Assembly (NCBI RefSeq): GCF_003334815.1
Contig: NZ_QOWO01000018.1
Origin: Escherichia coli
GTDB taxonomy: Bacteria > Pseudomonadota > Gammaproteobacteria > Enterobacterales > Enterobacteriaceae
Strand: one strand, 5' to 3'
DNA: 64,000 nt
A program made the translations under genes and the position numbers. Each line of letters opens with the position of its first letter. Positions within the stretch are counted from its first letter, which is position 1. Below are positions 10,537 through 11,516 of this stretch, piece after piece. The notes under the pieces were generated by a model that was not told the origin of the DNA, searched no databases, and saw nothing but the letters and a program-made list of their open reading frames with translations.

Positions 10537-11466
10537 TCACGTTAGCAGCGAAAACGCTGAAAGCAGCGGGTCGGCGGCACATAACGACTGAATTTGCTGG
10601 CGAACCAACAGCGCATTTTCACTGGCTCGCCAGCGTTCAAACATGGCAAAGAGGGCGAAAATATCCTCCTGCCGCAGCGAAGAACCATCCAGCGTCCATA
10701 AACTGATTAACGTGCGGAGGAGATAAAAATCGCACACCAGCGGGAAATAATCCGCCCCGTCAGTCTGCCCAATCACATCGTGGTAAACGCGGTAAATCAG
10801 CCAGTTACGCATCATCCAGGGCGCGGTGGCAAAATGCTGTTGCCAGGTGGTTTGCCACTGCGTCTGAAGCTGCTGTTGTAACAGGGCTTCGCTGTTAGCG
10901 TCATGCAGCGTCAGCAAAGGCATCTGCAACGGCAGCGAAGTTTTGCGCGGGCTTTCCGGCAAAATCGACCAGTCAAACGTAAAACTCCCGAGTAACGTGG
11001 CCAGGTGACGCGCCAGCTGTGGCACGGGCGGCAGCTGGGCGAACTGTGCCTGTAGGATGCCTTTTTTCGCATGATCGGCCAGCGCCTGCGGCAGCGTCGT
11101 CAAACGGGCAAGAATATCTCCGTCTCTGCCCGGCATTTTACTGGCGCGGGAGAGCAGGATACCGACGGCATACAATGACAGTTCTGGTGTTAAATCACGG
11201 AGCGTGAGGGTACTCAAAATCACCTGGTTTACTATCGCATCGCGCGCGGAAAGCTCTGCGGCATTTTCTTCCACAGGACGGTAGGTGAGCTGTAAATCAA
11301 AGGCCCTGACATCGTTGAGCATCGCTTCGCAGCTTTCTGGCTCTGTCAGCATCAGGCTCAGGCGAATCTCGTTTTTCCACACCTTGCGGACGTATAAAGG
11401 CGAACCGGGGTATTGCGTCATAAAATTGCGCACGTATTCCGGTTCGTAACATTCAATAAAACTCAT
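10537..11466 (-). CDS. Hypothetical protein of unknown function, associated with the flagellar modification cassette
   Basis: 309 aa from ATG at 11466 (MSFIECYEP..., GGAAG RBS); Trp/Gln-rich, no domain recognised; sigma-54 promoter immediately upstream. Confidence 0.5.
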   Translation of the reverse strand: MSFIECYEPEYVRNFMTQYPGSPLYVRKVWKNEIRLSLMLTEPESCEAMLNDVRAFDLQLTYRPVEENAAELSARDAIVNQVILSTLTLRDLTPELSLYAVGILLSRASKMPGRDGDILARLTTLPQALADHAKKGILQAQFAQLPPVPQLARHLATLLGSFTFDWSILPESPRKTSLPLQMPLLTLHDANSEALLQQQLQTQWQTTWQQHFATAPWMMRNWLIYRVYHDVIGQTDGADYFPLVCDFYLLRTLISLWTLDGSSLRQEDIFALFAMFERWRASENALLVRQQIQSLCAADPLLSAFSLLT

Positions 11467-11500
11467 AGGTGGCTTCCAGTCTTTAATGCTGTGCAGGATG

Positions 11501-11516
11501 TGCAATAAGCGTGCCG
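11501..11516 (-). promoter_or_regulatory. Sigma-54 (-24/-12) promoter, minus strand: CGGCACG-cttA-TTGCA
   Basis: Reverse complement of 11501-11516 is cggcacgcttattgca, matching TGGCACG-N4-TTGC with correct GG-N10-GC spacing, about 35 nt upstream of ATG 11466. Confidence 0.55.

Follow-up and report, generated by a model that had tools for sequence, protein, structure and literature searches.

A putative enhancer-dependent sigma-54 promoter upstream of lafV in the Flag-2 lateral flagellar locus of Escherichia coli

The 64,000-nucleotide (64-kb) stretch of Escherichia coli contig NZ_QOWO01000018.1 (RefSeq assembly GCF_003334815.1) analysed here, referred to as the window, covers the Flag-2 locus, which is the lateral-type, second flagellar locus of this species. 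We examined the sequence upstream of lafV, a putative flagellar modification gene on the minus strand of this locus. Judging from their sequence, positions 11516-11501 would form the core of a standard sigma-54 promoter with all its parts. This promoter would transcribe lafV, and probably also the large glycosyltransferase gene behind it, and would be activated by LafK, an enhancer-binding protein encoded in the same cluster. We give this reading a probability of about 0.75. By its sequence features, the lafV element belongs to a familiar class, that of enhancer-dependent sigma-54 promoters in lateral flagellar regulons. The analysis adds a candidate LafK enhancer with a fixed helical phase, which ties the modification cassette to the rod-hook and cap/sigma-28 operons. 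This is regulatory evidence beyond adjacency that the lafV-glycosyltransferase cassette is part of the Flag-2 flagellar programme.

A sigma-54-type element upstream of lafV

The -24/-12 element is CGGCACGcttaTTGCA (11501-11516, minus strand), which lies within ...aaaaaatccCGGCACGcttaTTGCAcatcctgcacagcattaaagactggaagccacctATGagt and has its GG at 11515-11514 and its GC at 11503-11502. The distance from GG to GC is exactly 10 nt (GG-N10-GC), and the element matches TGGCACG-N4-TTGCW at 11 of the 12 specified positions, the sole mismatch being a C for the T before the GG. An earlier note on this DNA, made from its letters, had described a near-perfect -24/-12 element with correct spacing, and this description holds. 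The element is intergenic and co-oriented with lafV, lies 78 nt past the stop codon of lfgN, and is separated by 34 nt from the lafV ATG at 11466-11464. A Shine-Dalgarno-like GGAAG (11477-11473) ends 6 nt before this ATG. Standard sigma-54 promoter geometry predicts a transcription start about 12 nt beyond the C of the -12 element, at 11488-11492 on the minus strand. A start near 11490 would leave a 5' leader of about 24 nt. One program-listed open reading frame (ORF; 10537-11505, TTG start) opens within the promoter. Because RefSeq annotates the ATG at 11466, and because M1 and the N-terminus are invariant in 18 homologues, we take this ATG as the true start of lafV.

The number of such motifs in the window is not significant by itself. 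On both strands, TGGCACG-N4-TTGCW with at most one mismatch occurs three times against 1.16 expected, and 12 of 100 shuffled sequences reach three. Taken alone, these counts would allow the lafV match to be a chance occurrence without promoter function. However, position and orientation are correct: all three motifs are intergenic, co-oriented with and directly upstream of Flag-2 genes (lafV, lfgB and lafB). We also scored about 128,000 positions of the window with a weight matrix trained solely on the lfgB and lafB promoters of other loci, a type of scan that the earlier note had proposed. The three highest scores belonged to lafB (32.3), lfgB (30.6) and lafV (15.1), followed by a next-best score of 10.8, on a background of -45 +/- 12. 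This independently trained matrix thus ranks the lafV site third. The palindrome that is paired with the element (see below) is expected only 0.2 times per window, its spacing is phase-locked, and the element has been retained both among E. coli alleles and between genera whose flanking sequences have diverged. The comparative data therefore already contradict a chance match, which we consider very improbable.

Other promoter types were not seen at these genes. A sigma-70 promoter scan of 7300-13300 returned none above chance and none upstream of lafV or the glycosyltransferase gene, and no sigma-28-like box of the type found before lfgM and lafA was present upstream of lafV. No sigma-54 motif with up to three mismatches was found before the glycosyltransferase gene, lafK, lfiM or lfgA, where the relevant intergenic regions included 550-935 and 13132-13212. 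Two further candidates were set aside. One, a weak composite within lfiI/J (6876-6861, 3 + 1 mismatches), was deemed a chance match. The other is TGGCATGACTATCGCT, which recurs within lfgA in many loci, is unaccompanied by a palindrome and probably reflects coding conservation.

A palindrome paired with each Flag-2 sigma-54 motif

Upstream of the lafV element lies the palindrome GGAAACGGATTTTCC (11557-11571), of the form GGAAR-N5-YTTCC, which we regard as a candidate LafK enhancer (upstream activating sequence). It begins 22 nt past the lfgN stop codon and lies 41 nt before the -24 GG, with its centre at about -74. The recurrence of GGAA-N7-TTCC, later refined to GGAAR-N5-YTTCC, emerged while the stem-loop behind lfgN was being examined as a terminator. 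No intrinsic terminator was found after lfgN by consensus scan, and the hairpin itself (-9.8 kcal/mol, z = 0.29) is no better than those of shuffled sequences and has no U tract.

Perfect copies of GGAAR-N5-YTTCC occur exactly three times in the window (11557-11571, 13095-13109 and 26033-26047) against 0.20 expected, and none of 100 shuffles reaches three. The three palindromes pair one-to-one with the three sigma-54 motifs, with gaps of 41 nt at lafV, 52 nt at lfgB and 41 nt at lafB. The module of the lfgB (rod/hook) operon spans 13095-13176 on the plus strand and consists of the palindrome GGAAATAAAACTTCC (13095-13109), the 52-nt gap and a perfect sigma-54 motif, TGGCACGgcgaTTGCT (13161-13176). 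Its palindrome lies within the first codons of lfgA, and the divergent region between lfgA and lfgB is 81 bp long. The module of lafB, a fliD-type cap gene in an operon with the sigma-28 gene lafS, spans 26010-26103 on the plus strand, with the palindrome GGAAATGGCCTTTCC at 26033-26047 and the sigma-54 motif TGGCACGcctTTTGCC at 26088-26103. A second, imperfect palindrome (26010-26024) is found there, 23 bp further upstream.

The spacers of all three modules are AT-rich and carry a site resembling the consensus of integration host factor (IHF). The 41-nt gap at lafB holds a perfect IHF consensus, WATCAANNNNTTR. The site in the lafV spacer (11534-11546, minus strand) reads CAATCCCTTGTTT, and its complement is WATCAANNNNTTR with one mismatch. 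Across 74 distinct modules, the palindrome arms do not vary, in contrast to the 5 nt between them. In terms of consensus matches only, the spacers of these modules contain 16 perfect and 33 one-mismatch IHF sites, compared to about 0.55 and 7.7 in shuffled spacers. As far as its sequence goes, this succession of palindrome, spacer and core corresponds to the textbook layout of a sigma-54 promoter, in which a bend separates enhancer and core.

Classical promoters that combine an enhancer, IHF and sigma-54 include those of NtrC at glnAp2/glnHp2, NifA at nifH and the FlbD 'ftr' sites of Caulobacter flagellar genes. The Flag-2 modules resemble them in having an upstream dyad site, a putative IHF-type or AT-rich bend, a GG-N10-GC core and an AAA+ activator with an HTH_8 domain. 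Dependence on the face of the helix, another feature of these promoters, is implied here by gaps of 41/42 versus 50-54 nt. The Flag-2 half-site GGAAR/YTTCC differs from the sites of NtrC, NifA, FlbD and FleQ. Further differences are that the Flag-2 promoters usually have one site (two at lafB), that this site is centred at about -74 or -85, closer to the promoter than in most of the classical cases, and that LafK is without a sensory domain.

Conservation among species and within E. coli

We then compared 23 species-level loci obtained by a genome-collection search with alignment of LafV homologues. GGCA[CT]G-N4-TTGC was found 34-96 nt before the lafV start in 21 of them, which belong to Escherichia spp., Pseudocitrobacter, many Citrobacter, Phytobacter, an Enterobacteriaceae isolate and Leminorella. 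The palindrome is perfect in 20 of these loci and has one mismatch in the other (L003), and it lies 41-42 or 50-51 nt before the element. The remaining intergenic sequence upstream of lafV cannot be aligned between clades. The lfgB module was present in all 22 loci that reach lfgA-lfgB, including both that have no promoter before lafV; the one remaining locus (L006) stops about 550 nt upstream of lafV. In loci other than the window, the gap of the lfgB module is 52-54 nt.

The pairing also holds where whole loci were inspected. A 21-kb Citrobacter locus contains one palindrome and one sigma-54 motif, which stand together before lafB with a gap of 42 nt. A 21-kb Phytobacter locus contains two such pairs, one at lfgB and the other at lafB (lafB gap 41 nt). 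Contigs of Hafnia, Budvicia-like and Atlantibacter genomes that were found by means of LafK carry no module, because they stop short of lfgB and lafB. Within E. coli, alleles of the lafV promoter region are 84-94% identical; their palindrome arms, GGCACG and TTGC are invariant, and the changes fall in the spacer and leader.

Metagenomic and Vibrio loci

The composite of palindrome and sigma-54 motif was also searched for in metagenome contigs, with gaps of 38-55 nt allowed, and 120 loci were returned. Thirty-six of these match at least one Flag-2 protein, and 33 carry Flag-2-type genes, with LafB identities down to about 31%. In these 33 loci the module lies directly before lfgB, lafB or lafV, save for one located after lafC. 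Their gaps cluster at 40-42 and 50-54 nt and their spacers have an A+T content of 0.70. Conversely, the gaps of the other 87 loci are spread over 38-55 nt without clustering and the spacers have an A+T content of 0.45, as chance predicts. Pooling all modules, the gaps are 41-42 nt (22 modules) or 50-51 nt (6) at lafV, 52-54 nt (33) at lfgB, and 40-42 nt (16) or 44 nt (2) at lafB. The two gap classes differ by about one turn of the helix, which points to a constraint on the face of the DNA.

Three of the 87 loci (L035, L052 and L093) have a LafK-like activator of 39-43% identity as their sole Flag-2 match. The composite lies directly downstream of the activator gene in L052 and L093 and about 5 kb away in L035. 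These composites may be chance matches, or may belong to a related regulator family with a similar site.

Outside the Enterobacterales, a lateral-flagellar cluster is present on a Vibrio campbellii replicon, and its LafK shares 48% identity with that of E. coli. Upstream of the lafB/fliD_L gene of this cluster we found GGAAAAGCCGCTTCC, followed after a 54-nt gap by AGGCACAcatcTTGCG, which has the GG-N10-GC spacing. A second perfect GGAAR-N5-YTTCC in this replicon (L153 18836-18850) lies inside the ORF next upstream of lafK and has no sigma-54 motif within about 100 nt. A match in Aeromonas caviae belonged to a polar-type cluster and was uninformative.

LafK as the probable activator

The lafK gene (936-1922, plus strand) encodes a sigma-54 enhancer-binding protein of 328 aa, as assigned by NCBIfam and by precomputed Pfam domains (PF00158, PF25601 and PF02954). 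The protein consists of a Sigma54_activat (AAA+) domain, an AAA lid and an HTH_8 domain, has no receiver domain, and is the sole such activator in the cluster. LafK has been classed among the activators without a signal domain (PMC3162934). Its length is 328-348 aa in Enterobacterales (328 in E. coli) and 444 aa in V. campbellii (L153 19635-20969), so the enterobacterial proteins are without about 115 N-terminal residues.

In Vibrio parahaemolyticus and Aeromonas, LafK activates the class II lateral genes (PMC3930126, PMC4481668), and mutation of lafK lowers the activity of the lateral flgB promoter of Aeromonas hydrophila from 970 to 20 Miller units (PMC5013049). The V. parahaemolyticus fliM_L operon is LafK-independent (PMC3930126), which agrees with the finding of no sigma-54 motif in the lfiM-lafK intergenic region of the window. 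The V. parahaemolyticus and A. hydrophila lateral systems are similar to Flag-2 in several respects (Stewart and McCarter 2003, Wilhelms et al. 2013, as summarised in PMC3930126, PMC4481668 and PMC5013049). The same LafK family is encoded beside fliE-J, the target operons are flgB_L and fliD_L...fliA_L, expression proceeds in three tiers with sigma-28 for flagellin, and the fliM/lfiM operon and lafK have no sigma-54 motif. What differs is that the predicted E. coli target discussed here is a modification cassette in variable region 1 and not a structural gene.

An activator other than LafK could be responsible, or the palindrome could bind a different regulator, such as LafZ, an OmpR/CadC-like protein of the cluster, or a factor of the host. 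Besides LafK, about a dozen sigma-54 activators are encoded by E. coli, binding by LafK is inferred here, and the cluster contains a second regulator gene of the Trans_reg_C type (23602-24495). However, within the window and all retrieved loci, the palindrome is restricted to sigma-54 promoters of Flag-2, and it accompanies lafK-type clusters as far as Vibrio. Dyads of the 5-N5-5 form are typical targets of NtrC and other HTH_8 activators; winged-helix proteins of the OmpR type, in contrast, mostly recognise direct repeats. Together with the LafK dependence of lateral flgB promoters in Aeromonas, this makes another activator an unparsimonious and quite unlikely explanation.

We therefore return to LafK, for which the following course of events can be proposed. 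The GGAAR-N5-YTTCC palindrome near -74 would most likely be bound by a LafK dimer through its C-terminal HTH_8 domain, and the AT-rich spacer with its IHF-like site would bend the DNA. The -24/-12 element would be bound by sigma-54 RNA polymerase, so that transcription would depend on rpoN. LafK oligomers would then loop to the closed complex and open it with ATP, and transcription would start near 11490. The same three-part module would drive the lfgB (rod-hook) operon and the lafB...lafS...lafTU operon. The earlier note had placed lafV under the same sigma-54/LafK control as the structural flagellar operons. The phased palindrome shared by lafV, lfgB and lafB supports such common control, with a dependence on rpoN and LafK that is inferred.

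The likeness of the lafV, lfgB and lafB modules suggests that the modification enzymes would be made in the LafK-dependent middle class, ahead of the sigma-28-dependent flagellin. Placing the cassette in this class would mean that its enzymes are there before flagellin is exported. More broadly, the palindrome may be a previously undescribed LafK enhancer that extends from Vibrio to Enterobacterales and is used in two helical phases (centred near -74 and -85). The lafV-glycosyltransferase pair would have joined the LafK regulon by gaining the whole module, with other lineages wired differently, and the E. coli enhancer may double as a 3' RNA stem-loop of lfgN. Taken jointly, we find this set of proposals slightly more likely than not. 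The signature GGAAR-N5-YTTCC, gap of 40-42 or 50-54 nt, GG-N10-GC marks lateral-flagellar promoters in genomes and metagenomes, and could help to define the LafK regulon.

Variable wiring of lafV and possible read-through from lfgN

Several observations weigh against a dedicated, LafK-activated promoter of lafV. The T at -26 is replaced by C in the lafV element (by A in most Citrobacter), and the matrix score of 15.1 is far under that of lfgB and lafB (about 31), which suggests that the lafV promoter is possibly weaker than those two. Its enhancer, with a centre at about -74, is nearer to the promoter than many classical enhancers (about -100 to -150), and we found no description of a LafK binding site in the accessible literature. 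The palindrome at lafV extends to a 7-bp stem directly after lfgN, so that a role as a 3' hairpin of an RNA is also conceivable. In two Enterobacter loci (sp. kpr-6 and ENT03; L019 and L021), lafV follows lfgN after 22-27 nt and is without a promoter, so that it is presumably co-transcribed with lfgN there. In Hafnia-type loci (L025, L062, L073 and L115), the order is glycosyltransferase gene-lafV, behind lfiJ and on the strand of the lafK operon, and the module is absent. The latter two arrangements show that a dedicated sigma-54 promoter of lafV is not universal. The last point, a long hairpin between lafV and the glycosyltransferase gene in E. coli, is described below.

The lafV/glycosyltransferase cassette is thus wired in three ways: to its own enhancer and sigma-54 promoter in Escherichia and Citrobacter, joined to lfgN, or appended to the lafK-lfiJ operon. 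The second of these raises the question of whether lafV is expressed mainly by read-through from lfgA-lfgM-lfgN, transcribed by sigma-70 and/or sigma-28, in E. coli as well. The -24/-12 element would then be minor and the palindrome would be a 3' stem-loop or terminator of lfgN. Such read-through is consistent with the co-orientation of lfgN and lafV at a distance of 127 nt, the 7-bp palindrome stem right behind the lfgN stop codon, a sigma-28-like TAAAGTTT box before lfgM, and the two promoterless Enterobacter loci. A terminator is argued against by the weakness of the hairpin and its lack of a U tract, by the invariance of the GGAAR/YTTCC arms alone with a variable loop, and by the presence of the same palindrome within the lfgA coding region and before lafB, where no gene ends. 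Nor would read-through alone need the conserved -24/-12 element and palindrome phase seen in 21 of the 23 loci. Read-through and a dedicated promoter can coexist; some read-through is probable, and in the two Enterobacter loci it is presumably the only mode. As the main route to lafV expression in E. coli, we consider it unlikely, and the LafK-activated sigma-54 promoter is the reading that we retain below.

The probable lafV-glycosyltransferase transcription unit

The gene behind lafV (7914-10358, minus strand) encodes a large glycosyltransferase of 814 aa, with an N-terminal GT2 domain (Pfam Glycos_transf_2, E-value 2.4e-17) and a weak CDP-glycerol glycerophosphotransferase-like region (Glyphos_transf, E-value 0.011, residues 605-728). 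In ten of ten other loci examined, all from other genera, a glycosyltransferase of 820-890 aa follows lafV at a distance of -46 to 61 nt. This adjacency makes it very probable that the pair is an operon. In the window the gap is 178 nt and contains a GC-rich, near-perfect inverted repeat of 136 nt (10394-10529; ...GCCCCTCACCCTAACCCTCTCCCC...GGGAGAGGGTTGGGGTGAGGGC...), which folds at -97 kcal/mol (z = -8.9). The repeat is absent from the lafV-glycosyltransferase gap in other genera.

A query containing this repeat matched 5,073 of 5,426 complete E. coli genomes, at a median of five places, compared to single matches in 1,278 genomes for the promoter region alone. The hairpin is therefore a small repeated element that most E. 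coli genomes carry at several places, and presumably resembles the 'boxC'-type intergenic repeats of this species. A search for RNA families in 10200-13300 gave only sub-threshold matches to eukaryotic miRNA models, which are due to the long hairpin. The hairpin could attenuate or process the lafV-glycosyltransferase transcript. With no separate sigma-54 or sigma-70 consensus promoter before the glycosyltransferase gene, co-transcription with lafV is still the simplest reading, and by its arrangement the glycosyltransferase gene probably comes second in the lafV operon. The earlier note had extended the control of the promoter to this gene. The pairs in ten other loci speak for such an extension; in E. 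coli, with the hairpin in between, read-through into the gene is plausible but not assured.

A small gene after lfiJ (7401-7796, plus strand) matches a glycerol-3-phosphate cytidylyltransferase of the TagD type (E-value 2e-33, below the cutoff). Its sequence, together with the Glyphos_transf-like region of the glycosyltransferase, hints at a lateral flagellin modification that might involve glycerol phosphate.

LafV and the Flag-2 locus

The 309-aa product of lafV (10537-11466, minus strand) had been described as unknown in the earlier note, and is a 'hypothetical protein' in the RefSeq annotation of a chromosome identical in this region. It can now be assigned to the FliB_C family (PF27117). 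All full-length LafV homologues in the database carry this precomputed domain, and they are named 'lysine-N-methylase' or 'lateral flagellar associated protein'. LafV of the window had no match in the installed Pfam-A library. Against the NCBIfam FliB model NF038110 it scored 43.4 bits (E-value 3.1e-11), under the curated cutoff of 85, and aligned to positions 105-363 of the 373 in the profile. Since the N-terminal part of FliB, of about 100 residues, is missing, a methylase activity of LafV is only putative. No cysteine is invariant among the 18 LafV homologues.

Salmonella fliB is likewise a gene for a flagellin-modifying enzyme, in its case a lysine-N-methylase, that lies within, and is co-regulated with, a flagellar cluster, and LafV carries the FliB_C domain of its product. 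Compared to FliB, LafV is shorter and is paired with a large glycosyltransferase. The two also differ in regulation: fliB is controlled by FlhDC and sigma-28, whereas sigma-54 and LafK would control lafV.

Several complete E. coli chromosomes match the window over 10400-12100 with 100% identity. According to the RefSeq annotation of one of these, the plus strand carries lafK, lfiEFGHIJ and the small cytidylyltransferase gene, in this order. These are followed on the minus strand by the large glycosyltransferase gene, lafV, lfgN, lfgM and lfgA, and then again on the plus strand by lfgB-L, lafA, lafB (fliD) and the remaining genes. Variable region 1 of Flag-2, which lies between lfiJ and lfgN, most commonly carries LafV proteins (LafV1-10) and GT2 glycosyltransferases (De Maayer et al. 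2020, PMC6993521). Orthologues of LafV were reported in 342 of 592 Flag-2 loci, and GT2-1 in 222 Enterobacteriaceae (PMC6993521). The cassette of the window consists of the same genes at the same position. That study catalogued gene content and nowhere mentions promoters, and the regulatory wiring reported here is additional to it.

Sigma-28-like boxes were seen upstream of lfgM (12351-12380, minus strand; TTAAAGTTTtgccgcctgttaaCCGCTTTA) and lafA (24856-24886, plus strand; TTTTAAGTTTgctcccgaggtgtCGTTTTTA). The two have AAGTTT-N13/14-CGnTTT(T)A in common, a sequence that may represent the promoter type of LafS, the lateral sigma-28.

About one in four complete E. coli genomes (the 1,278 of 5,426 mentioned above) has the lafV promoter region of Flag-2, once per genome. 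Both lafK and this promoter region also occur in a few E. coli records of 100-834 kb that are classed as plasmids; possible explanations are misassembled or chromosomal fragments and the mobilisation of Flag-2 segments.

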